Below are positions 108 to 64,000 of a stretch of DNA of 64,000 nucleotides, piece after piece (the first letter of the stretch is position 1; each line of letters opens with the position of its first letter). A program made the position numbers and the translations under genes. The stretch is taken from assembly GCA_963796685.1 (NCBI GenBank), contig CAWCMR010000010.1:32001-96000 (forward strand), given 5' to 3'. The notes under the pieces are model-generated. The model made no database searches, was not told the DNA's origin, and saw only the letters and a program-made list of their open reading frames with translations. The DNA comes from an uncultured delta proteobacterium (GTDB lineage: Bacteria; Myxococcota_A; Polyangia; Fen-1088).

Positions 108-1265
108 CTACGGCAGACTTGAAGCGCTGGTTCCTCTACGCACCTTGGATCGAGCCTTCGCCAACAACAAGGAAGGCCAAGCCGGATTCATGCACGGACG
201 TTCGAGCAACACGAAGATCAGCCCGCTGATCGCGAGGGTCAGCGGCGCAAGCACGAGGGCCCAAATCGCGAAGGCGTAGCCGAACGGCATGAGCGGAAGT
301 ATGCGCCTGCCGACTTGGAGCGTGTGAACGACAATGGGGCCATGGACGAGGTAGATCGTGTAGCACATCCCCCCGATGGCCACGATCCAGGGATTGCCAA
401 AGATACGCCGGCACCATCGCCCGCGGATCGACCCACAGTAGGCCATCAGCACCACGAACGGCTGGATCCCGTAGAAATACCGCTCGTAGGCCACCAGCGG
501 CCAGATGGCGATCCAGCTTGCGATGGCAACCCAATCCCACGCACGGCTTTCCACGGGGTTCTCCTGCCAATCCACCACGTAGAGATCCGCAAGCAGGTAG
601 CCCGCGAAAAACTCCTGGAGGTGCCCAATCACGCTACCGAAATAGCGAAAGTCCGTGGTGCTGTATCTCGGCATGCCGAAAGCGAGAATGAGGGCCACGA
701 GAAGTGCCCGCCGGAGCAGCCGATTCCTGAGAAGAAAGACGCAGGTGAGAATCGGCGTTAGCACGTAGAACTGGACCTCGACTTCGAGGGACCATGCGGC
801 GCCCAGCACCGGATTCTGGCTTCCGTAGATCAGCGTGTGCTGGTAGAGCAACCCCACGAGAAGGTGGGGCCACGCGTCGATAGCCGTCAGCGCCCCGGTC
901 GCGCACTCGACGAAGAAGATTGTGAGCAACAGGAGAAAGTAGGGTGGCTCGAGGCGCGTGACTCGCCGGAGAAAATACGCGCGCAGCGAGACCGGTTTAC
1001 CTCCCGCGAGCCGCGCCCGGACAAAGGGAAGTGCAAGCACGAAGCCGCTGATGACGAAGAACAGCTCGACGCCGTAGCGGCCCACATCCATGAGCACGCG
1101 GATCGGGAGATTCGGCGGGGTGGATGCAGCACCGAGCGTGGACATGGTGTGCGCGATGTGAAAGAAAAAAACCGACGAGATGGCCACGAAGCGAAAGCCG
1201 TCGATCTGCGGAATCAGCCGTCTTCCCGGCGTGACGACTCGCCCCAGATGCTTAAGCAGGGGCAT
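108..1265 (-). CDS. Acyltransferase family 3 (OafA/YrhL-like O-acyltransferase)
   Basis: IDGFRFVAI, GVELFFVISGF, FLRRVTRLEPPY and WSLEVEVQFY motifs; multi-TM; start placed at ATG 1265. Confidence 0.9.
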   Translation of the reverse strand: MPLLKHLGRVVTPGRRLIPQIDGFRFVAISSVFFFHIAHTMSTLGAASTPPNLPIRVLMDVGRYGVELFFVISGFVLALPFVRARLAGGKPVSLRAYFLRRVTRLEPPYFLLLLTIFFVECATGALTAIDAWPHLLVGLLYQHTLIYGSQNPVLGAAWSLEVEVQFYVLTPILTCVFLLRNRLLRRALLVALILAFGMPRYSTTDFRYFGSVIGHLQEFFAGYLLADLYVVDWQENPVESRAWDWVAIASWIAIWPLVAYERYFYGIQPFVVLMAYCGSIRGRWCRRIFGNPWIVAIGGMCYTIYLVHGPIVVHTLQVGRRILPLMPFGYAFAIWALVLAPLTLAISGLIFVLLERPCMNPAWPSLLLAKARSKVRRGTSASSLP

Positions 1266-1412
1266 GGTCGGAAGTGACCTTGATTTTGTCGTGCGGCGCA
1301 AACATCTCGGACATCTGGCGGAGCAGATTAGGCCAACTTGGGTCGGAATGCCCGTAGCTTCTCAAAACCGGGATGCGGGGCCTCCGGGTTTGCTTTGTTG
1401 CCGGTCGAATCC

Positions 1413-2702
1413 TTAGCCGCCGTCGCTATCTGGTTCCACCTGCGGAGCTCCTGTAAGAAGGCCGGCGTCCTCGACGCCGAGCTCTTGCCCGGCGATCTTG
1501 CGGTAGAGGGCCCGATAGGTGCGCGCCGTCCGCTCCCAGGTGAAGAGTTTCGCGCGCGCCCTTCCTCGCTCGCGTAGGGATTGCCTGAGCTCGGCATCGC
1601 ACCACAGTTTGCGGATGGCCTCGGCCATGTCCTCTATCGAGTAAGGATCGAACAACAAGACCGCGTCGCCGCCGTACTCCGGCAAAGAGGTAGCCGTCGA
1701 GCAGGCGACCGGCGCACCTTCCTGAAAGGCCTCGAGCAGCGGAAAGCCACCGCCCTCGAAGAGGCTGGGAAAGATGAGAAAGTCCGCCAACCGGTAAAGC
1801 GCGCGCAGATGGCCGGGATCGACATAACCGAGGAACGAGACCTGGTCGCCGAGCTTCAGCGCGCGTGCCCGCTTGTGCACGATCGACCAATCGTGCACTG
1901 GCCTACCCGTGCACACGAGGTTGGCCACGATGCCGTGCTGGGTGCGTGCCTTTGCCAAAGCCTCCAGCAATCGCACGTGGTTTTTGTGCGGCCAATACTG
2001 CGCCGGGAAGAACATGAATCGAGGCGGCAGGTTGTGCTCGCGCCGGACGGCATCCATGTCGTCGGGGACTGGGGTACGGTAGAAGATGGTCGGCGCGCCG
2101 CGGGGTATGGCCACGACCTTCTCCTCGGGGATGCGGTACTGCTCGATGATGTCCGTCTTGGCAGCAAACGATTCGGCCGCGACGGCTGTCGACAACCGGC
2201 ACGCGGTTCCGTGCAGGACATCGCGCTGGGCAACCTCGGCGGGCGTGAAGAACTCAGGCAAGTGCCGGTGCTGCAGGTCATGCGGGTTGTAGACCGAGGG
2301 AATCTTGGTGCGCTCGAAGTATTGGAAGGGGAAGTGCACGACATCGCATGACAACGACTCGAAGAACCCGTCCGATTCGGCGGTCTTGAAAGCAGCGACC
2401 CCGTGCAGCAGGTACTGCACGCGCGAATACCACGGACCAACGACCTCGGCGAATCTCCCCAGGCGTCGGATGACCTTGTCCCTGAGCTGCGGCCTCGGAC
2501 GTACGACCAATCGCTGGTTGTCGCCCATGACCTCGGTGAGACGCCTCTCGTTATCCGGCGTAGCCACCACCACGTAGCGCTCCGGCCCGTCCTCCAAGCG
2601 CCCGAGCGCACCGATGAGCGATATCAGAAACTGCTCGATACCTCCCGCGAAGCCGCCCATCGGGAGCTCGGCGTGAAGGGCGATGGTCAGGGGTTGTTTC
2701 AT
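1413..2702 (-). CDS. Glycosyltransferase family 4 (GT-B, MtfB-like)
   Basis: HDLQHRHLPEFF, WPHKNH and FPSLFEGGGFPLLEAF motifs. Confidence 0.9.
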   Translation of the reverse strand: MKQPLTIALHAELPMGGFAGGIEQFLISLIGALGRLEDGPERYVVVATPDNERRLTEVMGDNQRLVVRPRPQLRDKVIRRLGRFAEVVGPWYSRVQYLLHGVAAFKTAESDGFFESLSCDVVHFPFQYFERTKIPSVYNPHDLQHRHLPEFFTPAEVAQRDVLHGTACRLSTAVAAESFAAKTDIIEQYRIPEEKVVAIPRGAPTIFYRTPVPDDMDAVRREHNLPPRFMFFPAQYWPHKNHVRLLEALAKARTQHGIVANLVCTGRPVHDWSIVHKRARALKLGDQVSFLGYVDPGHLRALYRLADFLIFPSLFEGGGFPLLEAFQEGAPVACSTATSLPEYGGDAVLLFDPYSIEDMAEAIRKLWCDAELRQSLRERGRARAKLFTWERTARTYRALYRKIAGQELGVEDAGLLTGAPQVEPDSDGG

Positions 2703-2888
2703 GGCAGGGCGAAGAGAATCATGGATGCTACTTGCGAATCGCCATGTACCGATAGCTCGCGAAATCGTTTTCCGTCAGCTTGTCCCACCTAAATGACTGA
2801 TAACCCGGCCTGTGTCCACCATGTTCTTGCCTGGGGCCGCGAAAGCACCGGCAGAGACAAGAGGGCAACTGTGATATGAGGTTGGGAC

Positions 2889-3743
2889 ATGGCCGATCAC
2901 TCCCCATCTCCCTCGCTATGCACTCGCACCGAGATCGAGTCGCGCATCGCCGCGGTTCCGTTCTGGTGGCATTCGATCGAAGTCGGTCAAGGGGTGACAA
3001 CCCCCGGCCAGAAGACGCCATCGCAACTTGCGGTGGAGCTCAAGACCTTGCGTCTACCCGACCTGCACAAGAAGACGGTTCTCGACATCGGAGCTTGGGA
3101 CGGCTTCTATTCCTTCACGGCGGAGCGGCTAGGAGCGGAGAAGGTGACGGCGCTTGACCACTTCGTCTGGTCCATGGATCTCAAGGAGCACAAGAAGTAC
3201 TACGACGACTGCATCACGCGTGGGGTGTCTCCCGAGCCTTACGAGACACTCCCTTACTACAAGCCTGCGGAGCTGCCGGGCAAGCGAGGCTTCGACACCG
3301 CCCGCGAACTGCTGGGAAGTGGGGTGGAGTCTATCGTCGCCGACTTCATGACCGCGGATCCGAAGGCCGTCGGAACCTTCGATGTGGTGCTATTCCTCGG
3401 GGTTCTGTATCACATGAAGTACCCCATTGAGGCACTGGAGCGGGTCGCCGCTCTGACCCGTCAGGTGGCGATCATCGAAACCGAGGCCATCTTCCTTCCC
3501 GGCTTGCAGGACCAAGCCTTCTGCGAGTATTTCGAGAAGGGCGAGCTCAACCACGACGTGTCCAACTGGTGGGCGCCCAACCAGAAAGCCCTTGTGGGTA
3601 TGTGCCGAACCGCTGGGTTTCGTCACGTGACGGTGACGCCTACGGCGCCCGTCCTGCCAATGTGGCAGCAACTGTCCTTGCGCTGGGGTGTGGTGGGCAA
3701 GCGAGTTCAGCGCTACCGAGCCGTCGTGCAGGCCTGGAAGTAA
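2889..3743 (+). CDS. Class I SAM-dependent methyltransferase (CmoB/DUF1698-like)
   Basis: WWHSIE, VLDIGAWDGFYSF and FDVVLFLGVLYH motifs. Confidence 0.85.
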   Translation: MADHSPSPSLCTRTEIESRIAAVPFWWHSIEVGQGVTTPGQKTPSQLAVELKTLRLPDLHKKTVLDIGAWDGFYSFTAERLGAEKVTALDHFVWSMDLKEHKKYYDDCITRGVSPEPYETLPYYKPAELPGKRGFDTARELLGSGVESIVADFMTADPKAVGTFDVVLFLGVLYHMKYPIEALERVAALTRQVAIIETEAIFLPGLQDQAFCEYFEKGELNHDVSNWWAPNQKALVGMCRTAGFRHVTVTPTAPVLPMWQQLSLRWGVVGKRVQRYRAVVQAWK

Positions 3744-3783
3744 GAGCTTCTTGCAATGCGCGGTGGGGCGTCTCCGCCCCGCC

Positions 3784-4776
3784 TCAGTAAAGCTCCTTGG
3801 CGACCAGGAGGCTCCGTAGGTTTTTCGGTGTCAACTGCTTGAGGTCGGCCAGGCGGATGCCGCGGTTCATCGCGCAGTATTTGAAGGCCGCGTAGGGGGC
3901 GGTCAGGCAAAGCTCGATGGGTTTCCTCTTCAGGATGGTGGGCGTGACGTGGGCCTCATACCAGCGGCTGCAGTAGCCGTAGACGCGGTTGGCCGGCGCC
4001 CAGTGGAAGTGTTTGTAGACCACCTCGAGGCATTCCCGAGAATTCGCCAAGGCATGTTCGCCGGAGACGGTCTTCGATTCGCCGTGAAGCCGGTAGCACG
4101 AGAGGAAATCCTCGACATAGCGGAAGCGGCAATCGGCGGCCATTCTGATCCACAGATCGTAGTCCATGACGTAGCGGAGGCTCGCGTCGGGGTAGCCGGC
4201 GCGCTCCAACGCCGAGCGGCGGAAAAAGGTGGAGGGCTGGCAGATGAAGTTCACGACGGCCAGTCGTTCGCGCGAGAAGTCTTCGGTCGGGTACGGTCCG
4301 AGACGCGCGCCGGCTTCGTCGACATAGTAGGTCTTGCCATAAACGACCTCGCAACCAGGATCTTTGGAAAACGCCTGGCACACGGTCCCCAGCGCCCCGG
4401 GTGCGTAGGTGTCGTCCGAGTTGAGCCAGGCCAGGATGTCCCCCGTCGACATCGCGAGTCCCTTGTTGATGGCGTGGCTCTGGCCGTCGTCGCGCTCGCT
4501 CAGCCAGCGAAGCTTGATGTCCCGGCAACGGATGGGCCACTCGCCCCGCGACAGCAGCGACGCGTATTTCTTGATGACCTCGACCGAGTTGTCCGTCGAC
4601 CCGCCGTCGACGATCACGTAGTCGATGGCGAAGTCCCCTTCTTGGCCGAGGACGCTCGCAATCGTCTCTTCGAGAAACCGGCCCTGGTTCCACGAGGGCG
4701 TGGTGATGGAGACGGTGGGCACCTCGCGAAAGCTACTCCGAAACGCGACGCCATGGCTAGATCTCATCTTGCCCAT
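3784..4776 (-). CDS. Glycosyltransferase family 2
   Basis: SIITPS-like N-terminus, VDGGSTDNS, AINKG, WLNSDD, MDYDLW; start uncertain. Confidence 0.88.
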   Translation of the reverse strand: MGKMRSSHGVAFRSSFREVPTVSITTPSWNQGRFLEETIASVLGQEGDFAIDYVIVDGGSTDNSVEVIKKYASLLSRGEWPIRCRDIKLRWLSERDDGQSHAINKGLAMSTGDILAWLNSDDTYAPGALGTVCQAFSKDPGCEVVYGKTYYVDEAGARLGPYPTEDFSRERLAVVNFICQPSTFFRRSALERAGYPDASLRYVMDYDLWIRMAADCRFRYVEDFLSCYRLHGESKTVSGEHALANSRECLEVVYKHFHWAPANRVYGYCSRWYEAHVTPTILKRKPIELCLTAPYAAFKYCAMNRGIRLADLKQLTPKNLRSLLVAKELY

Positions 4777-11175: not shown

Positions 11176-11715
11176 ATGCAGGCATTCGCTCGACGAGGAT
11201 TTCAACTTCGCTCGGCATCGCTCGAGACCCGGATCGCCTACACCGGCTTCGTGCTGCTCATGCTGCCGGCCCTGTCGACCCTCGTCGCACTTTCCTTCGG
11301 TCGCATCGGGCTCGATCCCCATTCCATCGCGGCGCACTACCGCGGCGGAGAAAGCGAGATGTCCTTCCCCAAGACCTTCTGGCAGCTCGTGGAGACGAGC
11401 CATTTCCATCTCTTCACCATCCCGGTCGTGGCGCTGATTCTGTCCCACCTGCTCTACGCCACGCCGGCGTCTCCGCGGCTGCGTATCTACCTGACGTCGA
11501 TCGTCTTCACGGGTGCATTCCTGGACGCGGTGGGGCCGTGGACGGTTCGCTATCTGTCGGCGGGCTTCGCCTACCTTTTGATGGTCGGGTGGATGTTGCT
11601 CGCGGGCGGCTCCTTGCTCATCGTGATGCTCACGCTCGCCGCGATGTGGGGACCCAAGCGCTGGGGTGCACGCGCAGCCTCGTCGGCTCCCGCCAACGGA
11701 GACGACAGGCCATGA
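11176..11715 (+). CDS. Integral membrane protein with conserved His (ETSHFHLF), part of flavinylation module
   Basis: About 4 TM helices, AAGGAG RBS, ATGA overlap with next gene. Confidence 0.7.
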   Translation: MQAFARRGFQLRSASLETRIAYTGFVLLMLPALSTLVALSFGRIGLDPHSIAAHYRGGESEMSFPKTFWQLVETSHFHLFTIPVVALILSHLLYATPASPRLRIYLTSIVFTGAFLDAVGPWTVRYLSAGFAYLLMVGWMLLAGGSLLIVMLTLAAMWGPKRWGARAASSAPANGDDRP

Positions 11716-12281
11716 ACCGATCGCTCGCGGCGCTGCTGGCCGCGCCGGGCGTGGTGTTGATTGCGCCCGCTCCCCTGCTAGGGGGACAGACGTACCTTCA
11801 CGAGGCGGACGCGGCACGGGCCATGTTCCCCGAAAGCACCGCCGCGACGAAAAAGCGTCTCGAGCTCGGCGACGTGGAGATGGCGGCGCTCTCCAAGGCG
11901 CTCGGACGACGGATCGAAGCCCGAAGCTATCCTTACCTCGACGTGAAGGGTGAGAAGGGGACGCTGGGATTCATCTTCATCCTGGACGTCATCGGCGAGA
12001 GTCTGCCCATCACCTTCGCCGTCGGGGTAACGGTGGACGGTGCACTCCAGGACATCCAGGTGATGGTGTACCGCGAGCCGCAAGGGGAGGCGATCCAGGA
12101 GAAGCGCTTTCGCAAGCAGTTCGTCGGCAAGCGCGAGAAAGACCCCATCACGCTCGACAAGGACATCGACGCGATCAGCGGAGCGACCATTTCGTCGCGC
12201 TCGGCCACCTTCGCCGCACGCAAAGGGCTGCGGCTTGCCGAGGTGCTGCGCAACCGGGCCTCCGCGGGAGGCAAGCCATGA
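11712..12281 (+). CDS. Exported FMN-binding protein (RnfG/NqrC-like)
   Basis: Signal peptide; VYREPQG; flavinylation motif IDAISGATISS. Confidence 0.9.
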   Translation: MNRSLAALLAAPGVVLIAPAPLLGGQTYLHEADAARAMFPESTAATKKRLELGDVEMAALSKALGRRIEARSYPYLDVKGEKGTLGFIFILDVIGESLPITFAVGVTVDGALQDIQVMVYREPQGEAIQEKRFRKQFVGKREKDPITLDKDIDAISGATISSRSATFAARKGLRLAEVLRNRASAGGKP

Positions 12282-13276
12282 GTCGCCAGGCAGTCGCCCG
12301 CCGCGAGCCGCAGTCGGCTCTCGAGGGCGTTCTCGTGCGTCGCGCTCGGCCGCTCATGGGCACGCTGGTCGGCGTCAGTGTTCGCGGATGGAACCGCGAC
12401 GCTCTCGAGCGCGCGATCCGTGGCGCGTTCGCCGAGATGGAGCGCCTCGAAGCCATCCTCTCCGAGTGGCGGCCCGACAGCGTTGTCTCGCGCGTAAATC
12501 GGTCCGCCAGCGAGGCGCCTGTCCCGGTCCCGACCGAGCTCGTCGAGGTCATGGAAATCGCCGCGCGTGTATCCCAGGCGAGCGCGGGGGCTTTCGACAG
12601 CACCTGGGCGGCTCTCTCGGAATTGTGGAGGCTCGACGAGCCCGATTTCCGTCCGCCGGACGCTGCCGCCGTCGCCGCTGCGCGGAAGCTGGTGGATTAC
12701 CGCGAGGTCGTGCTCGACGTGGAGAAGCAGACCGTCTTCCTCAGGCGGAGAGGGATGCGGCTGGGGCTGGGTGGCATCGCCAAGGCCTACATCGCCGAAC
12801 GCGCGGCCGACCTCGCCGTGGCCGCGGGCGTGCGCGACATTCTGATCGATGCAGGCGGCGATGTGGTCGCGCGTGGCCGCAACGGCGAACGCCCCTGGTC
12901 CGTCGGTGTCCGCGATCCGCGCTCGGCCACGAGGCTCATTGCAACCGTCGACTTGAACGACGAAGTGATCTCGACCAGCGGCGACTACGAGCGCTTCGTC
13001 GAGGTGGACGGTCATCGCTATCACCACCTGCTGGATCCGAGAACTGGCTATCCCGCCTCGGCGAGCCAAAGCGCGACGGTCGTGGCACCCGATGGCGCGT
13101 TGGCCGAGGCACTTTCGACCGCGCTCTTCGTCCTCGGTCCACCCGGCCTGGCGATGGTGTCCGGGTTTGCGGGGACCGCGGCTTTTCTCGTGGACGGCGA
13201 TGGTCTGGCGCATTTCACGCCGGGCGCGAGCGCACGCCGGGTGGACATGGCCGCCTTTGGATGGCGTCGAGAATAG
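12278..13276 (+). CDS. apbE: FAD:protein FMN transferase
   Basis: LMGT, LGGIAKAY, STSGDYER, HHLLDPRTGYP. Confidence 0.93.
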   Translation: MSRQAVARREPQSALEGVLVRRARPLMGTLVGVSVRGWNRDALERAIRGAFAEMERLEAILSEWRPDSVVSRVNRSASEAPVPVPTELVEVMEIAARVSQASAGAFDSTWAALSELWRLDEPDFRPPDAAAVAAARKLVDYREVVLDVEKQTVFLRRRGMRLGLGGIAKAYIAERAADLAVAAGVRDILIDAGGDVVARGRNGERPWSVGVRDPRSATRLIATVDLNDEVISTSGDYERFVEVDGHRYHHLLDPRTGYPASASQSATVVAPDGALAEALSTALFVLGPPGLAMVSGFAGTAAFLVDGDGLAHFTPGASARRVDMAAFGWRRE

Positions 13277-55410: not shown

Positions 55411-57372
55411 GTGGTTGTGCTGCTCCTGCTCTTCGTGGCTGGGCGCTGCCTCGTCCCGATGGACGAGACGGACGTCTTCTTCAATTTGCGCCTGGGCGAG
55501 ATCGTGCTCGGCGGCGCGCGCGTGCCCACGGAAAATCTGCTCTCCTTCACGCATCCCCACGCCACCGACATCAACCTGGCGTGGCTGTTTCAGATCGCCC
55601 TTGCCCTGGCCCATCGCGCGGCCGGGCTGCCGGGGACGGTGGTGCTCAAGACCGTTTTCGTGTTGGCCACATGGGCTCTGCTTTATCGGGTGGCCGTGAG
55701 GCGAGGCGCTGCTCCCGCGCCGCTCGCGCTCGCTTTGGCCCTCGCCGCATGGGCCGCCGAGCCGCGTTTCGTCGAACGTCCCCACCTGGTCACGTTCCTG
55801 GGGCTGGCGGCTGTCTTGCTGGCCCTCGAGCGCGCCGAGGCCAAGCGGCCGCGGATGCTTTGGCTGCTCGTGCCCGGCGGGCTTCTGTGGGCCAACGCCA
55901 ACTCGTGCTACTTCCTTGCCCCGACGCTGCTCCTACTCTACGCGCTTGGGGCCTGGCGAGACGGGCTTGCGGCCGAGGCGCGCCGAGGGGTGAAGGTGGC
56001 GCTGGCCATGGTTCCATTCATTTTCGCCACGCCGTCGGGGTTTCGCGCCCTGACCTACATCGCGAACCACTTCCGCATGCCGTACCTGCGGCCGTTGCAG
56101 GAGTATCGGCACGCGCAGTGGCCGCTCGACGGGCCGTTCTTCTTCTTGGCGGCAGGCCTGCTCTTGGCATCTGTGCTGCCGCTAGTGTATCGACGCTTGC
56201 CCACCTTGGTTCCCACGCGCGTGCTTCTGCCCTGCGCGGCGCTGGCAGTGCTGGGCGGGCTGCGCATTCGCTTCGTCGCCGAATTCGCCATGCTCGCGGG
56301 ACCGGCCCTGGCGGTTGCGTTCACGCGCCTGGCCCCTCGGCTTGCCGGTCGCTGGGCGGCCGGGATCGCGGGCGGGGTGCTCGTCGCTTTGACCGTGGTG
56401 CCGCGCCTGGTCGCGGGCGCCGAGGGCGGGCGGGTCTTCGACCTCGGTCTGGAAGCGGATCTCGTGCCCCTGGCCGCCGTGGACTTCGTCGAGAAGAGCG
56501 GACTGCGCGAGCGCATGTACAACGATCTCGAGGTCGGCTCGTACCTGACCTGGCGCGGCTGGCCACGCTTCCGCGTGTTTCAGGATCCGCGTATCAACGG
56601 CTACCCCGATTCGTTCCATGCGATCCTGCGTCGGGCCGACCTCTCGCGCGCCGAGTGGCAGCGTTTGCTCGACGGCTTTGGCGTGACCTCCGCGCTCGTG
56701 ACCTATCCCTCGGTCAATCCGCGCGGAGCACTCTTCGCTCCCGGACTGTGGGCCCTGGTCTACCGCGCGAACGACGGCCTGGTCTTCGTTCGCCGGCCGG
56801 TGCGCGACGGCCTGCCCGAGATTCCGCTGACCTTCACCTATTCCCCGGCGACTGGCCTTTCGGTCGCCCCGCTCCTTGAACCGCCCGTCGGCGTCCACGT
56901 GTCCCTTTGCGAATGGCGGTCTCGTTTGGGCGACTACTATCGCCTCGCCGGAGACGCTCGCTCCGCGCTTGGCCGCTACGTGTCCGCCATGCGCGACGAG
57001 GGTGCTCCCCCATGTGTCCTGGCCGCGCGCGAATCGGCCGGGATGCTCGCCTTGCAGCTTGGGGATCCTGCCCAAGCGGCAGAGTGGCTCGCTGGCGCGA
57101 CCGGCCCGGTGGCCAGAACCAATCATGGATTCGCCTTGCTCGGGCTCGGCCATGCCGCGGATGCGCTCGCCGACTTCGATGCCGTGCTCGCCGCCGAAAG
57201 CCGCAACGACGAGGCAACCTTCGGCCGTGGCCTGTCTCTCGTCGCGCTCGGCCGCGCCAGCCTGGCGGCCTCAGCCTTCGAGGCCCTGCTCGCGCGTTCG
57301 CCCAACCACCTGTCCGCACCCGCGGCCAGGCTGGAGCTCGCGCGCCTGCGCGGGGGAGCCGGAAAAAGGTAG
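55411..57372 (+). CDS. GT-C-like multi-TM membrane protein with C-terminal TPRs
   Basis: DETDVFFNLRLGE, ERPHLVT, LWAN, MYND...GSYL, VFQDPR; TPR-like tail; start uncertain. Confidence 0.75.
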   Translation: MVVLLLLFVAGRCLVPMDETDVFFNLRLGEIVLGGARVPTENLLSFTHPHATDINLAWLFQIALALAHRAAGLPGTVVLKTVFVLATWALLYRVAVRRGAAPAPLALALALAAWAAEPRFVERPHLVTFLGLAAVLLALERAEAKRPRMLWLLVPGGLLWANANSCYFLAPTLLLLYALGAWRDGLAAEARRGVKVALAMVPFIFATPSGFRALTYIANHFRMPYLRPLQEYRHAQWPLDGPFFFLAAGLLLASVLPLVYRRLPTLVPTRVLLPCAALAVLGGLRIRFVAEFAMLAGPALAVAFTRLAPRLAGRWAAGIAGGVLVALTVVPRLVAGAEGGRVFDLGLEADLVPLAAVDFVEKSGLRERMYNDLEVGSYLTWRGWPRFRVFQDPRINGYPDSFHAILRRADLSRAEWQRLLDGFGVTSALVTYPSVNPRGALFAPGLWALVYRANDGLVFVRRPVRDGLPEIPLTFTYSPATGLSVAPLLEPPVGVHVSLCEWRSRLGDYYRLAGDARSALGRYVSAMRDEGAPPCVLAARESAGMLALQLGDPAQAAEWLAGATGPVARTNHGFALLGLGHAADALADFDAVLAAESRNDEATFGRGLSLVALGRASLAASAFEALLARSPNHLSAPAARLELARLRGGAGKR

Positions 57373-57381
57373 ACTGTCTTC

Positions 57382-59042
57382 GTGTCCCGTCCTTTCGCTC
57401 GTCGAGGTCCATGGTTGAGGCTTCTCGGGCTGCTCCTGGTGGCGGGGCTGGTCGTCGCGTGCATCGCGGAGCTGGCGCGCGCGGCGCCGACCGATTTCGA
57501 TGACGCATACATGTACCTGCGCTACGCCGAGCACCTGCTCGCCGGGCAGGGCATGGCGTGGAACGCGGGCGAGGCTTCCGTCTACGGCGTCACCAGCCTG
57601 CTGCATCTGGCCGCTGTCGTGGTCGTGAAGATCGTCTTTCCCTGGCTCGCTCCTGCGGCGGTGCTGCAGGTGGCTTCGGGAGGCGCCGCGGTGGCCTTTC
57701 TGGCCGCCATGATCGGGCTCGCGGCCTTGCTCGGCCGCCACGAGCGCCTGGCTGGCAACTGGATCTTCTGGGCCGCGATCCTGTTGCCGCTGCTGGCGTT
57801 TCGCGAGGCCTTCGTTTTTCACGCCAGCACCGGCATGGACACCATGATCTCCGCGCTGGCCAACGGCGTGCTCGTGTTCTGCTCGCTGCGATTCGCGTCC
57901 GCGCCGAACGGATCGCGGGCAGTGGTGGCGGCGCTGGCCTCGTTGCTGGCCGTTCTCGCCCGGCCCGACAATTTGCCCTGCGCGCTTCTTTGCCCGGTCT
58001 TGGCGGTGTGGCTTCTCGCGCCCCGACCCAAGGCGAAGTCGATCGTCCTGTTCGCCGCCCTGGCTGGCGGACTGCTCGCGGCGCTCGCCCTTGCCCAAAG
58101 GGCGCTGCTCGGGTCGGTCTTGCCGCTTTCCTTCTTCGCCAAGCAGCCTTGGTACTACCGCGGCTTCGCCGGCGAGTTTGCCTGGAATCCGTTCCTCTTT
58201 CTCGGGGTCTTCGCGCTGTCGGCTTGGCCGTTCGTCGGGGTGTTGATCCTGTTCGCGGATGGTCGGGGGCTGCGTCGTGCGGCCGCCTTGCTCGTCCCCG
58301 TGCTCGCGACCTTCGCGGTGTTGTTCAGATTCAACCAGATCATGGGTCATCTTGGCCGCTTCTACTATCCCTTCCTGCCCTTCTTCGTCGCGGCCGGGGC
58401 GCTCGAATTCGATGCGTGGATGAGCCGGACGCGCGCGCTTCGCGAGGTCCGCCCGGCGGCGATGCTGTGGCGAGCGGGGCTGGCCGCCGCGGTGACCCTG
58501 CTCGGCATCGTGTCGCTGTCGACCGCGGCCCAAGCCTACGCCAGTCGTGCACGAACCCAGCGATTCGCCGCCACGGACGGTTTTCACACCAGGGCGCAGG
58601 CGTCTCTGCCCGAGATCGATTCCTGGCAGGCAGCGCATGCCGTCGCGGAGATGGCCAGGGCGGCACCTGCCGGCGTCAGCTTTGCCATGTCCGAGCACGG
58701 CCTGCCCGGCGCCTTGGCGCCGCAGGCGACGATCATCGACGTGCTGGGACTGCACGATTCGTACTTCGCGCACCACGGGTTCTCCACGGCCGAGTCTTTC
58801 GCCGCCAGCCCGATGTCCTGTGGCTGCCTCACGCCGATCACACGCAAATGGTGCGCGACATCCTCGACAGCGACGATTTCTGGAGCCACTACGCCTTTTA
58901 TCCGGATGCCTTCTTCTACGGCATCGCCCTGCGCATCGACGGACCCCACTTCGCGCGCCTCGCCGAGTTGCTGTCGGAGCAGTGGCGAATCGCCTACCCT
59001 GGTTCGACCATGGCCGACTACCAGGCCGTGCGCGGAAATTGA
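57382..59042 (+). CDS. GT-C-type membrane glycosyltransferase (AftB-like), frameshift at about 58795
   Basis: DDAYMYLRYA, YGVTS, GMDT, ARPD, DVLGLHD; C-terminus FRRQPDVLWLPH in another frame. Confidence 0.75.
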
Positions 59043-59060
59043 TCCGGCGCCACGGGTTCG

Positions 59061-60353
59061 CTACCCGTTGCGGTTCGCGTGCAGGACCAAAGCCTGGGCA
59101 GGCCGAAGGTCGTAGTGAAACGGCGCGGGTATATGGTGCATGCGGCTCTCGGGCGACAGATCCGCGAGTGGGGTGCCGGTCTGTACGAACCCGGCGAGGT
59201 TGTCGCAGTGGAAGGTATGCGTGCCGTGCAGGTCGCGATTCACGATGAGAAGGATCTCCTCGCGCGTGTGCGCGGAGCCCTTCCACAGCACAAGGACGTT
59301 GTCGTTCCCGGATACCTGCACCTCGACCGGCGATTCTTCCTGGAAGATGGGGTGCGACGTCTTGATGGCGTTCACCTGCTTGATGTACGGGCGAAGATCG
59401 ACGCCGGTATTCTCCCAGTCCTCGGGCCGCGTGCGCACGACGTGCAGGCGACGGCGGAACCCGAACTCGAAGCCCATCGGCATCATGACCGCGGCAGAGA
59501 AGAGCGCGCTCACCAGGTAGCGCTGCTTGCAAGCCTCGATGTGGCCGTGCAACTCTTCGGCGAGCCTCGGGGTATCGTGACTTTCGGCGAAGCTCACGGA
59601 GGGGACGATGTCGCGCGTGATGGCATATTGCTTGGTCAACCAGGTCCCGCGGAAATCCCACCACTTCAGGCTGTTGAATACGTAGTCGAAGCCCGCCGCG
59701 GCCGTGCGCAAGGCGTTGTCGAGCGGACACCCCAAGGTTTCGGCGAGGAAGATCGCATCGGGGTGAGCTGCCTTGGTCTCGCCGATGAGTCGGGACCAAA
59801 ACGAAGTCGGAATTTGATAGGCGGCATCGCAGCGGAAGGCCCGAAAGCCTCGTGCGTAGAGTCCATCGACCACGCCGCGGAAGAAACGATACAGGCTGTC
59901 CGGGGCCTGGGTGTGGCGATGGTCGAACTGGGCCAGGTCGCCCCACACGATCTTCTTGCCGTTTTCCCGGCAGGAGGGATGGGCGACGCGGCCGGCTCCT
60001 TCCCAGACGAACCACTCGGGATGACGCTTCACCAACGGCGAATCCGCCGCGCAGTGGTTGGCCACCAGATCGATCATCAGCTGCAACCCGAGGGCGCGGG
60101 CGGCGTCGACCGCGGTCTGCAGCTGTGCTTCGGGATCGAGCGCGCTGTGCGGGTCGAGCAGCCGGGGATCCAGGGCGTCGTAATCGGCGATGGAGTACAG
60201 GCTTTGCGACTTGCCCGAGCGTTGAATGGGATTGACGAAGATCCAGGAAAAACCCATGGCCGCGGCGCGTTCCAGGTGTTTGGCCCAGCCCAGGAAGGGG
60301 CCGGCCAGGAGCGGGAACAGGTTGTAGACGAGCATTTTTCGCGACGAGCTCAC
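59061..60353 (-). CDS. GH13 alpha-amylase-family protein (GlgE-like catalytic core)
   Basis: DLVANH, FRCDAAY (nucleophile), FLAETLG, ESHDT; GTGA overlap with the upstream gene. Confidence 0.9.
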   Translation of the reverse strand: MSSSRKMLVYNLFPLLAGPFLGWAKHLERAAAMGFSWIFVNPIQRSGKSQSLYSIADYDALDPRLLDPHSALDPEAQLQTAVDAARALGLQLMIDLVANHCAADSPLVKRHPEWFVWEGAGRVAHPSCRENGKKIVWGDLAQFDHRHTQAPDSLYRFFRGVVDGLYARGFRAFRCDAAYQIPTSFWSRLIGETKAAHPDAIFLAETLGCPLDNALRTAAAGFDYVFNSLKWWDFRGTWLTKQYAITRDIVPSVSFAESHDTPRLAEELHGHIEACKQRYLVSALFSAAVMMPMGFEFGFRRRLHVVRTRPEDWENTGVDLRPYIKQVNAIKTSHPIFQEESPVEVQVSGNDNVLVLWKGSAHTREEILLIVNRDLHGTHTFHCDNLAGFVQTGTPLADLSPESRMHHIPAPFHYDLRPAQALVLHANRNG

Positions 60354-61180
60354 GGGCCGCCTCCCGCGCTTTCTTGCGCCTGCAGGGCCAGCAAGCGATC
60401 GCGAGCCGTGACCAAGAGCGTGGGGGGCGTGGGCCACTGTTCGAGGATCATCGAGCCGGTGTAGTTTCGTCGTCGCAAGCGCCGGAGCACCCCGACGACG
60501 CCAGAAGGATCCCGGCTGGCCGGGCCGGTAAACAGGGTCAGGTGCTTGTCGCCGTCACCCCAGTTCTCGTGCAGATGGGCATGGACGATGGGCACGTGCG
60601 CGGCCAGCCCGTCGAGGTAGGCCAGGTAGTCGTTTCGGGTCTTGCAGTAGAGATTGGCGTGACCGATATCGAGACACAGGCCGATGTGTCGGGCGCGTGC
60701 CGCATCCAGGTCTTGCAAGCACGCAAACACCCGGTTGACGTCCTCGGGCCCGGTGAAGACGGTGTTTTCCAGGGCCAACGTGATGCCATCTCGTGCCAGT
60801 GTATCCACCAGCGACAAGGTCGCCCGACAATAGGACTCGACGGGGTCGGGAACCAAATGGATGTTCAACACGCGGGCGCCGACATCGCGAGCGAGATCGA
60901 TGTCGCGCGACAGCTTGGCGCGGGCACCTTCCCCGCCCAGGCCGGATTCGAGAGCCGCGTGGACGCTGAGGCGCAGGTGGCGGACGGATGCGGTGGCGCG
61001 CAGGAACGCGCGCTCGTCCGCGCCGATGTCCTCGGCCGACCAACCCCGGCCGTGCGGCCCGCCGTCGGGGAAGAGCTCGAAGGCGTCGAAGCCTTGCTCG
61101 ACCGCGAACACGAAAGGATCGCGCACCGGCGCGAAGAACGCGGTCTGGTTGCCGATGCAGGGGCGACGCGTTTCAACCAT
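60350..61180 (-). CDS. Sugar-phosphate isomerase/epimerase (AP endonuclease 2) TIM-barrel protein
   Basis: LSVHA, LALENT, CLDIGHA, HAHLHENWGDGDKHL, ILE. Confidence 0.85.
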   Translation of the reverse strand: MVETRRPCIGNQTAFFAPVRDPFVFAVEQGFDAFELFPDGGPHGRGWSAEDIGADERAFLRATASVRHLRLSVHAALESGLGGEGARAKLSRDIDLARDVGARVLNIHLVPDPVESYCRATLSLVDTLARDGITLALENTVFTGPEDVNRVFACLQDLDAARARHIGLCLDIGHANLYCKTRNDYLAYLDGLAAHVPIVHAHLHENWGDGDKHLTLFTGPASRDPSGVVGVLRRLRRRNYTGSMILEQWPTPPTLLVTARDRLLALQAQESAGGGP

Positions 61181-64000
61181 GGTCGAGGCCCACCTGCGGA
61201 CGCGCCTGTACCACGAAGAAGCAGCCCTGGGCATAGGCGCCCTCGATGTCTTGCGGGCCTCCGAGGGCATCTTCCACCGCCCGGCCGAGCTCGGCCACTT
61301 TATCGAGGAGGCGGCGGCGTTCGTCTTCGTTCCACAGCAGATCGACCGCGGCGTAGTCCAGGGGGACGGCTCGCGGCTGCGGCACGACGATGCTGTCATA
61401 GAGCCCGGCGCCGGCAAAACCCGCGAGATCTTCTCCGCTCGAGTCCGAGCGGAAGATCACGCCACCCCCGTAGAGGCCCAGACTCTTGCTCGGGAAGGAG
61501 ATGATGCGTCCCGCCCGATCCCCGGGACGGCGCGCGAAACCCAGCGCGTGGCCGGGGTGATTCCCCACCAGGGTCTCTCCCAGGCCGAGCACGATCTCCG
61601 CGACGAGATCGTCGCGGTCGCCGGAGAGCGGGTTCGTGGTGTGGATGACGAACGCGTAGTCCGCGGCCACCACCTCCTGGATCAGGACCGCCATGAGCAA
61701 GCTGGCATCGGGGATACCCAGGGCCCGCCGGCTGAAGTACGCGCGTTCGTTCCACTTCGAGGCCCACACCCGCGTGATGGCCGACCAGGCATCGGGGAAA
61801 GACGTTGTCCATGGAATGCGCGCCTTAGCGGTTGCCGAGCGCAGGGTCGCCTCCAAACCGCTTGGCGGCACGAGCCCAACCAACAGGTCGCGCAGGGCCG
61901 CCAGGGTCGCCGGTATGTCGCTCGCGGGTTCCTGGACCAGGTGGTCGGTCAGCTCCTGATGCCGATTCGCCCCGGTCCGATTGAGGGCGTCTTCGAGCAC
62001 GCGTTCGCAGGCACCATAGGGAAGCGCGATGGCCGTCGGCACGTGGATCCAGTCGGGCAACCGATCGCGCAGCTGTTTCAAGTTGCGCGACTTGGCGCCG
62101 ACATTGGACTTCTCGAAGGCAACTTCGGGGATGGCGTATTCCCCCGACCTCGTCGGACTTACCCGCGACGGCCGCGCCGCCTTGGCCGTGGCTTGCACGG
62201 CGGGTGGCGCCACGGACGCGATCTGCTCGATTGCCAGCTCGCCGTCGGACCGCACCGTGAGTCTGAGCCCTTGGCCCTGGCGAGCGCGCAGGCTGGCCAA
62301 GCCATCCGCATCCCAGCAGGTCGCCAACAGAACACCCGCGTTGCGGGCACGCACCGCCACGTGGGACATGAGGTCCACCGTCGATTCCGTCACCACGGCC
62401 GTCACGCCCTGGGGAATCTCTTCCTCGCCGGAAATGCGAGCCGCCACGATGATGGTGCCGGTCTCGAAGGAGCGTCCTTGTGCCTCGGCCAGGGTCGGGG
62501 TGTTGTGCACGACACCTTCCACGCGTCCGGGTCCACGGCTCGCCACCTGCCAATGGCCGAGGCCGGCGATCGCCCGCAGCGTCTCGTCCAGCTTCCGCCC
62601 CAAGGTGGACACCACGAGCTCGATCCTGCCGCGCAACACCTCCTCGGAGAACAGCTGCACCGTCCACGACTCGACGGCGAAGGCCTGCCCCAGGTACTCC
62701 GCCAGGGGCTGGAGCAGGCGACCGTCGCCATCGGTGATGGCCACGAGCTCGCGGCGAATGCGCTCGAGCACGGCCTGTGCATGCAGGGCAAATTCCTGGC
62801 CCGAGTGAGGAAGCTGCGCCAGCCGGTACAGGTGGCGCAAGGCCAGCGCCAGCTCGTCGCTCCTGCGCGTGCAGGCGAGGTTGCGCAGCGCCAACTCGGT
62901 CCACGCCAAGCTCATCGGCCGATAGGCGTTCGTGCAGATTGCGTTCGACCAGGTTGCGTAGAAAGTCCTCCAAGCCGAGGTCGAGGTAGAAAAGGTCGCG
63001 CAATCCCGCGTGGCCCGGGCGAAGCTTTTCGGCCAAGCTTTCTCGCGCACGCGTGACCGATTCCAGCAGCCACCCGCGCGCCTGCGCGTCGTCGCGGCGG
63101 TGCCAGACGGTGTCCAGGAGGTGGCGGGTCGGTTCGTCCAGGAACCCGCGCGCCAAGCTCAACGCCGTGCCGAAATCCGTGGCCGAGTGGACGGCGCGCA
63201 ACACGCCGAGGAAGTCGCCGAAGTCGTGCAGCAAGGCATCGCGCAGATGGGGAATGAAGTCGGGGTGACTGCGAATCGGGCGTTCGTAGCCTTGCAAGCG
63301 CTTGCGGCTCACGCCGCCCGACTCGAGCGCCTTATAGAAGGCCGCCTGATCGCCGTGTCGGCGCAGAAACTCAAGGTAGGCCTGGCAGATCACGACGTCG
63401 TCCGGGGTGGTGTTGTTGTGCAGCTTCTGGTGCCACTCTTCGAGAAAATGTCCCGCCACCTCCTTGACGTGGTTCCGGTGCATGATCTCAAGAATGCCGT
63501 CACGCACCCGCTGCCCCTCGCCGCCCCGGCCAAGGGTACCGGCGATCATCCGTAGCAGCGGGCGCCCGCGCTCGCTGTGGGCCGCGTGCTCGGCCAGCTT
63601 GATGGTCAGTCGATCCTGCGCGTGCGCCAGCTCGCGCGGCTTGGTGTTGAAGTTGCGCTGCCAGTCGAGCTGGCGAATGGCCGAGAAGCGCAACCACACG
63701 AACAACAAGGCCAGCCCCGGGACGTTGTCGGGCGCGATGCGATCCAGGAGATCCCAGGCGAGGTTGAATCGGTGCATGAGCGTCCACGAGTGGTTCCCGG
63801 TTTCGGCCTCGACGATCTCGTCGGCGATATCCGCCAGGGCGGCATCCTCGATCGGCCCGCCCGCCGCTTTGGTGTCGAGGGGGACGAAGAAGTTCCGCCC
63901 GCGATCGTTCCACCACCGTTGCCCGTCGGATTGGCAAAGCACGAAGCACAGCCCTCGCGGCAGCTCGCCCGGACCGGTGGCAAGGTGCAAGGTGCGCAGC
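61173..64000 (-). CDS. Alpha-glucan water dikinase-like protein (5' end beyond window; frameshift at about 62907)
   Basis: MHRFN, WLRFSAIRQLDWQRNFNTKPRELAHAQDRLT, EEWHQKLHNNTTPDDVVIC, phospho-His DLMSHVAVRARN, VGAKSRNL, VWASKWNERA, FRSDSSGEDLAGFAGAGLYDS. Confidence 0.9.

Follow-up and report, generated by a model that had tools for sequence, protein, structure and literature searches.

The closest described relatives of the gene considered here are the plant and algal glucan, water dikinases, GWD1 (R1/SEX1; EC 2.7.9.4), and the phosphoglucan, water dikinases, PWD or GWD3 (EC 2.7.9.5). In potato GWD1 (StGWD1) five domains follow one another, namely two CBM45-type modules, a central domain, a phosphohistidine domain and an ATP-binding domain, according to the available part of the structural report (PMC13553574), in which the legend to the His-domain figure also names C1003 and C1007. 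Here we describe a bacterial gene of this family, of which two overlapping long frames lie on the minus strand in the last 2.8 kb of a 64,000-nucleotide stretch of DNA from an uncultured delta proteobacterium. This stretch, referred to as the window, spans positions 32001-96000 of contig C10 of genome G000 (G000:C10:32001-96000), and coordinates given without a prefix are counted from its first nucleotide.

The words bacteria and prokaryote are absent from the accessible portions of the StGWD1 structure papers, including PMC13553574, and PMC4046663, in its accessible text, mentions only pyruvate, water dikinase. The legend to a GWD tree of 2018 does show bacterial sequences, read there as possible lateral gene transfer, and the available text of that paper limits the prokaryotes that accumulate starch-like material to a few cyanobacteria, clostridia and some Verrucomicrobia (PMC6260743). 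An initial annotation of the window had stated that bacterial glycogen is not generally known as a dikinase substrate. This agrees with the available part of a 2026 review, which describes the way in which prokaryotic glycogen could be phosphorylated as unknown, the known machinery being absent (PMC13666283).

Structure and family membership of the dikinase gene

The first point to note is that the two frames together make up one gene of the StGWD1 type. The frame open from 63999 downward carries FVLCQSDGQRWWNDRGRNFFVPL, LMHRFNLA, VWLRFSAIRQLDWQRNFNTKPRELAHAQDRLT, GRGGEGQRVRD and EEWHQKLHNNTTPDDVVICQAYL, and the frame with its stop at 61173-61175 carries SGEEEIP, DLMSHVAVRARN and the nucleotide-binding part; all of the peptide blocks quoted in the initial annotation are thus present in the minus-strand translations. 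The extent given there was that of a gene cut by the window edge. When the 5' end was retrieved, the start proved to be a GTG at G000:C10:96668, 668 nt past the window end, with GAGGG just 5' of it and a gap of 91 nt to the stop of the preceding gene, a GH57 branching enzyme. Homologues of the protein start at the same place. The retrieved part adds the first CBM45-type module, which lies wholly outside the window, and brings the product to ∼1164 aa (587 aa from the N-terminal frame, P0001, and 577 aa from the C-terminal frame), in agreement with the 1155–1167 aa of the closest intact homologues.

On sequence grounds, the window gene is a true member of the GWD family and not a phosphoenolpyruvate (PEP) synthase, because domain order, central domain, catalytic His and the tree described below agree. 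The CBM45-type family PF23166 (Ig_N_CWD1) matches two stretches of P0001 (E 2.9e-39), and the central-domain chains of potato GWD1 (9QVI/9HA9) match P0001 with an E of 2e-61 in phmmer. Residues 280–581 of P0001 correspond to chain residues 24–341, and residues 4–114 of the C-terminal half to chain residues 354–466. Next come GWD1_pHisD (PF22973, 1.2e-30) and then PPDK_N (PF01326, 1.7e-23), both found with Pfam. The C-terminal frame aligns with residues 889–1464 of the chloroplast GWD of pepper (Capsicum annuum) at 40% identity over 587 aligned positions (E 2e-127); the alignment extends to both C-termini and places H182 of the C-terminal half on H1069 of the pepper enzyme. These matches lie well outside what chance would give, and all five domains stand in the StGWD1 order. 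Both the family assignment of the initial annotation and its succession of CBM45-like, central, phosphohistidine and C-terminal PPDK-type domains were therefore recovered by profile and sequence searches. The features of the gene are as follows.

62908-64000, minus strand: in-window part of the N-terminal frame (P0001), from translation; start outside the window
63877-64000, minus strand: end of the second CBM45-type module (P0001 residues 150-264; PF23166 Ig_N_CWD1)
62565-63831, minus strand: GWD central domain, split by the frameshift (match to 9QVI/9HA9)
62903-62915, minus strand: frameshift site, 7 nt between conserved GAG and TGG (alignment to intact relatives)
61176-62906, minus strand: C-terminal frame, 577 aa, stop at 61173-61175 (translation, Pfam, pepper GWD alignment)
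62217-62552, minus strand: phosphohistidine domain (C-half residues 119-230; PF22973, E 1.2e-30)
62361-62363, minus strand: predicted catalytic His codon, in MSHVAVRARN (aligned to Capsicum annuum GWD H1069; codon checked)
61191-62123, minus strand: PPDK_N-type ATP-binding domain (C-half residues about 262-572; Pfam, PDB matches, pepper alignment)

ATP domains of PEP synthase and rifampin phosphotransferase in the PDB match the ATP domain at ∼1e-11, and the NCBIfam models for these two enzymes match the ATP domain only, far below their cut-offs; the highest score with a PEP synthase model is 74.7 bits, where 883 is the cut-off, and the cut-offs across the models are 598–1063. Misannotation of a PEP synthase was rejected on these scores and on the reversed domain order. 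Eukaryotic contamination was likewise rejected, given a contig of 216 kb, a GC content of 64–71% (window 56000-64000) and overlapping operon genes, and it is also contradicted by relatives that come only from bacterial metagenome-assembled genomes (MAGs).

Gene neighbourhood, distribution and phylogeny

The GWD-like gene is the sixth of a minus-strand run that encodes a GH57 protein, a GT4, a DUF4912-GT4 protein, a further GT, the GH57 branching enzyme with BE_C, the GWD-like protein, a TIM barrel and a GH13 protein. A GT35 phosphorylase and a GT5 synthase are encoded elsewhere in the genome. We compared 80 named loci of relatives, from bacterial and archaeal genomes of several phyla, in which the recurring neighbours are GT5 starch/glycogen synthase, GH57, GH57 branching enzyme, DUF3536, DUF4912 and GT4. 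Because glucan-synthesis and branching neighbours recur in this way, and because GT35 and GT5 are present in the genome, the GH57/GT4 cluster context supports a predicted action on the cell's own alpha-glucan. The initial annotation had proposed the bacterium's own storage glucan as one substrate; the cluster context fits that proposal, with the activity itself a prediction. Two genes of the run lie downstream of the GWD-like gene within the window.

60353-61180, minus strand: xylose-isomerase-like TIM barrel, 276 aa (PF01261); its ATG overlaps the GWD stop (ATGGTTGA)
59064-60335, minus strand: GH13 gene, closest to the GlgE catalytic domain (Pfam, PDB matches)

The nearest solved relatives of the GH13 protein are the catalytic domains of GlgE maltosyltransferases (1e-20), the N-terminal domains of GlgE being absent from it. 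Judging from the translation, it probably starts at M35 of the listed open reading frame (ORF). GH13 homologues, 51–66% identical, are found in the flanks of 20 of the 80 loci.

The TIM barrel (PF01261 at 7e-22) is 41–75% identical to 40 homologues aligned from other loci. Its adjacency to the dikinase was counted from tblastn coordinates, with a start between -60 and +700 nt of the GWD end. The C-terminus of GWD could be located in 74 loci, of which 71 have at least 900 nt downstream, and a TIM homologue lies next to the GWD end in 45 of these 71. Stand-alone barrels account for 26 of the 45 neighbours, 16 lie in ORFs of at least 600 aa and three run off the locus. Six of the long ORFs were scanned with Pfam. 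The four longest (1166–1490 aa) consist of the TIM barrel, about 430 aa, GWD1_pHisD and PPDK_N, and are thus fusions to a second, PWD-like dikinase; in the other two, of about 685 aa, the TIM barrel only was seen. No description of a TIM–dikinase fusion was found in the literature.

The window's genome encodes an unfused PWD-like dikinase at a separate locus outside the window (P0123, 884 aa, G000:C8:229471-232122, minus strand), with a ∼430-aa N-terminal region followed by a GWD-type His domain and PPDK_N. Over 845 aa it shares 38% identity with the dikinase portion of a fusion from Verrucomicrobia, and its relatives, with 1208 matches scored, are named phosphoglucan, water dikinase by JGI. 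Its counterparts in other phyla have the TIM barrel at their N-terminus and directly follow the GWD-like gene. The N-terminal part specific to P0123 occurs in 18 of the 80 loci, each time together with a TIM barrel. One locus, L051 from a Candidatus Anammoxibacter MAG, has both arrangements, with a TIM–PWD-like fusion at 689-4237 upstream of the GWD-like gene and a second, free TIM barrel at 11698-12489 downstream.

Twelve residues are invariant in the TIM family (41 sequences): H74, H108, E138, D171, H174, H200, H202, H204, E205, D211, H213 and E247. A profile of the family matches, among PDB sequences, MJ1311 (6.6e-14), endonuclease IV (5e-5 to 1e-2) and UlaE (1.3e-3), and the NCBIfam model of the CbiR phosphodiesterase matches the TIM barrel at 1e-7, below its cut-off. 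The His, Glu and Asp residues of the family align with conserved endonuclease IV positions, which we take to be the zinc ligands of that enzyme. We know of no endonuclease IV-like TIM barrel that acts on glucans. No DSPc phosphatase was found in the G000 genome, which is 88.6% complete. The TIM barrel, being translationally coupled to the GWD-like enzyme, probably acts on the same phosphoglucan. Because the endonuclease IV matches are weak and the best relative is uncharacterised, a phosphatase role is a guess; our best guess is that the barrel would be a metal phosphoesterase that removes glucan phosphate, in place of the plant phosphatases SEX4/LSF2. It thus adds a candidate phosphoglucan phosphatase of a new type.

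The search with P0001 gave at least 1500 longer proteins. The 120 listed among them are about 1030–1230 aa long, have the same three Pfam families and are in many cases named alpha-glucan, water dikinase (JGI), with NCBI titles from Deltaproteobacteria and Nitrospirota. With E values up to 1e-3, clustering at 50%, eukaryotes included, left 1160 representatives, and with a limit of 1e-30 it left 237. The MAGs behind the named loci are labelled as Myxococcales, Desulfobacterales, Syntrophobacteraceae, Verrucomicrobiota, Nitrospirota including magnetotactic Candidatus genera, Candidatus Anammoxibacter, Omnitrophota, Candidatus Acidoferrum, Limnocylindrales and Chromatiales, with one Promethearchaeota archaeon. 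In the latter, an Asgard MAG (L059), the GWD-like gene lies on a contig of 4.2 kb and is 42% identical over the whole N-terminal half; either a misbinned contig or a transfer could account for it. Closer to the window, PF22973 was found in seven of 41 relatives, G000 included, and in five of 12 other genomes of the genus, and P0001 had no counterpart in 300 other sampled genomes of the phylum. Thus the family is not new as sequence, and the window gene is a member of a catalogued, unstudied bacterial GWD clade. The novelty claimed in the initial annotation was overrated, the family being large in public data, automatically annotated as GWD and, to judge from the legend, represented by bacterial sequences in the 2018 tree (PMC6260743).

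Eukaryotic GWDs, at 34–41% identity, were obtained in a search limited to proteins of at least 1209 aa. A phylogeny, which the initial annotation had proposed as a check, was built from 47 rows and 1156 columns, with 23 bacterial GWD-like proteins, 16 eukaryotic GWDs and 8 bacterial PWD-like proteins as the outgroup; the window protein was entered with an X at the break. The sampling did not include eukaryotic PWD, PEP synthase or any nameable alveolates or cryptophytes. GWD and the eight PWD-like rows are separated by a branch with support of 100, and the window protein lies inside the bacterial GWD clade, on the GWD and not the PWD-like side. That clade has support of 99 in FastTree, 99 in a quick IQ-TREE run and 98/99 in a careful run with LG+G4. 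Its grouping with the green lineage is weak (84/70), and the eukaryotes form one clade in 14% of the bootstrap trees. With these two low values the tree may fit either a bacterial root or an old transfer from eukaryotes. The initial annotation's suggestion that the gene bears on the origin of eukaryotic GWD therefore went further than the tree does, which gives a firm bacterial clade (98/99) and a weak placement relative to eukaryotes.

Proposed function and the break in the reading frame

On balance we favour the reading that the window ends in the gene of a cytoplasmic alpha-glucan, water dikinase of ∼1164 aa, which would belong to an alpha-glucan operon and act on storage glucan. We infer the enzyme activity, the substrate and the phosphorylated carbon from the family, the layout, the aligned histidine and the glucan-gene context. 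By homology with potato GWD1, the ATP domain would hand the beta-phosphate of ATP to the conserved histidine. The His domain would then swing to the central domain, where a glucosyl residue in the cell's own storage glucan would receive the phosphate while the two CBM45-type modules hold that glucan. The expected outcome is that glucan chains are loosened or solubilised for breakdown. The glucan of this bacterium may be semi-crystalline.

Several observations weigh against this reading. As assembled, the gene is broken inside its central domain. The gene of the sister species G002 has a break of different length at the same pair of codons, and the chance coincidence of two random errors at one site is estimated at about 0.2% (∼1/500); the shared site therefore calls for something site-specific, and no common error motif was found among twelve other frameshift junctions. 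The CFATC cysteine pair, a redox switch and a feature of plastidial GWD1 and not of the whole family, reads CFATC in pepper GWD and LLATC in the window protein. The best solved relative of the partner TIM barrel is the uncharacterised MJ1311, and beside the weak endonuclease IV matches a sugar-phosphate epimerase matches too (1.3e-3). Finally, no biochemical characterisation of a bacterial GWD was found in the literature, supplements lying outside the search.

The break itself is likely to be an assembly indel error, in which case the real gene is probably intact. Both good frames switch at about 62907, where the initial annotation had placed the frame change. In intact relatives, whose junction reads D-E-L-L-(A/G/E)-W, the conserved GAG and TGG are separated by 9 nt, against 7 nt in G000 and 8 nt in G002. 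A single frame carries the gene in G001, G007, G011 and G012, i.e. in four of the five other genomes of the genus that carry it. The ratio of nonsynonymous to synonymous substitution rates (dN/dS) between G000 and G002 is 0.219 for the N-terminal half (586 codons) and 0.257 for the C-terminal half (572 codons), similar to the values of 0.235 and 0.282 obtained with the intact gene of G001. No further stop or shift was found in about 1160 codons of the gene in G000 and G002.

The few-contig assemblies G000, G001 and G002 all have patches of false indels, because essential or conserved genes are shattered in each of them. rpoC (P0122) is in four pieces in G000 (C8:8131-12306) and intact in G001, rpoB is in eight pieces in G001 (C8:60052-64338), a conserved 916-aa protein is in eight pieces in G002 (C43:54059-56840), and a 1529-aa protein, whole in G002, is split in the other two assemblies. 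The frequency of such artefacts was surveyed with 117 long ORFs with a high GC content at third codon positions (high GC3) on contig C60 of the congener G012, of which 110 match G000 and 86 are orthologue-like. In G000, twelve of these 86 are divided between frames, several at two places. Other frameshift junctions in these assemblies are mostly 1-nt indels. Two candidates for a site-specific cause were considered. A methylation miscall at GAGCTC was rejected, the motif being undepleted (613 per Mb in the assembly versus 789 per Mb in G012:C60). The other candidate, a short CT repeat within a hypothetical GAG-CTC-TTG, would suffice but could not be demonstrated.

Gene calls from G000, G001 and G002 need care, and their completeness (84–90%) may be lowered by frameshifts. 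Elsewhere in the window, a membrane-protein-like ORF at 57382-59115 on the plus strand apparently switches frame near 58,800, with a tail that looks out-of-frame, and an overlapping frame at 57558-59042 ends in a plausible protein C-terminus. Neither the ORF nor the overlapping frame gave a match in Pfam. This is probably another assembly indel.

The initial annotation had left room for a real inactivating mutation. It is unlikely that the gene is a recent pseudogene here, and in G002 either independently or by descent, and an indel-rich assembly together with the dN/dS values makes this less probable than an assembly error. A real frameshift would account directly for the break at about 62907 in the assembly and for that at the same spot in G002. 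It would also suit a gene that appears dispensable and often lost, because the gene is patchy in the genus (five of the 12 other genomes) and absent from the 300 sampled genomes of the phylum. Decay would, however, be expected in an old pseudogene common to both species, whereas both halves show dN/dS of 0.22–0.26 at a dS between G000 and G002 of 0.36–0.64, with no additional lesion. The indel lengths differ, so that descent would need two hits, and the assembly is full of false indels in any case.

A different doubt concerns the substrate. The protein might be a GWD-family member that phosphorylates imported maltodextrins or another polysaccharide, or might have a non-catalytic role. Our search of the literature met no assayed bacterial member, the synthases of the cluster are GT4 and not the classical GT5, and the adjoining GH13 is nearest to GlgE, a user of maltose 1-phosphate. 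However, the paired CBM45-type modules, the central-domain match of 2e-61 and the conserved His and ATP domains favour the same alpha-1,4-glucan chemistry as in GWD1, and a branching enzyme and glucan synthases adjoin the relatives across phyla. On reading, no signal peptide is seen in the N-terminus, and the need for ATP suggests the cytoplasm. We regard this alternative as distinctly improbable, and a storage-glucan dikinase as the better account.

Least of all do we expect the gene to work despite the shift, as a functional split or by recoding: in-frame ATG and TTG (G000) or TTG (G002) do stand exactly at the junction, and both halves are under purifying selection in both species with an identical break site, but the break falls inside the crystallised central domain, after its residue 341 and before its residue 354, and not at a domain border, the N-terminal frame of G000 would continue for ∼360 junk codons, the junction sequence, on reading, has no Shine-Dalgarno-like sequence before these starts and no slippery heptamer, the shifts required in the two genomes would be opposite in sign, and a single frame is present in four other members of the genus and in all aligned database homologues.

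Because a full-length GWD relative sits among glycogen-type genes in this soil-type bacterium, the sequence data suggest that some bacteria also phosphorylate their storage glucan. GWD is treated by starch workers as a hallmark of starch-storing eukaryotes, and a large bacterial clade with the full layout points otherwise. The value of the window alone is modest, the organism being uncultured and its assembly error-rich, with better intact orthologues elsewhere. The most interesting part is the conserved module of GWD-like dikinase, TIM barrel and PWD-like dikinase within glucan clusters: bacterial GWD genes are located in clusters for alpha-glucan and frequently have a PWD-like dikinase and the conserved TIM barrel as partners. 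We offer, as a speculative extension that is more doubtful than the dikinase assignment, that many bacteria of several phyla have a complete, self-contained system by which storage alpha-glucan is reversibly phosphorylated, made up of a GWD-type dikinase, a PWD-type dikinase and a TIM-barrel phosphoesterase. The barrel, free beside GWD or fused to the PWD-type enzyme, would then do the work that in plants and animals falls to the dual-specificity phosphatases SEX4, LSF2 and laforin. If this is true, the glucan made by the GH57, GT4 and GT5 neighbours would be partly crystalline or poorly soluble, and the GWD/PWD pair would not be a eukaryotic invention.

Comparison with known systems

The TIM barrel resembles endonuclease IV/AP_endonuc_2 barrels, CbiR and MJ1311 in PF01261 and in its aligned His, Glu and Asp residues, its scores being below the family cut-offs. 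PEP synthase, PPDK and rifampin phosphotransferase have a homologous ATP domain (PPDK_N) and phosphohistidine swivel chemistry in common with the window protein. The order of the domains in these enzymes is reversed, however, the window protein having the His before the ATP domain and no PEP/pyruvate-binding domain, and none of the three enzymes has a counterpart of the CBM45 modules or of the GWD central domain.

The His-then-ATP layout is common to PWD and the window protein. In contrast to PWD, the window protein has CBM45-type modules and no CBM20, and it falls on the GWD side of the tree; a PWD-type N-terminal region and a grouping with PWD-like proteins were both absent. Most of the bacterial PWD-like proteins listed have an N-terminal TIM barrel (PF01261), whereas plant PWD has CBM20 in that place, as laid out in the available part of PMC6243121.

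The greatest likeness is to plant and algal GWD1, with the same five-domain order, a matching central domain and an aligned catalytic histidine. Whilst these features are held in common, the window protein is about 300 aa shorter than plant GWD1 and is without a transit peptide, and it does not have the DUF7067 elements found after the CBM45 modules of green-lineage GWD. Unlike the plant gene, the window gene belongs to a bacterial operon that also encodes a TIM barrel and GH57/GT4 proteins.

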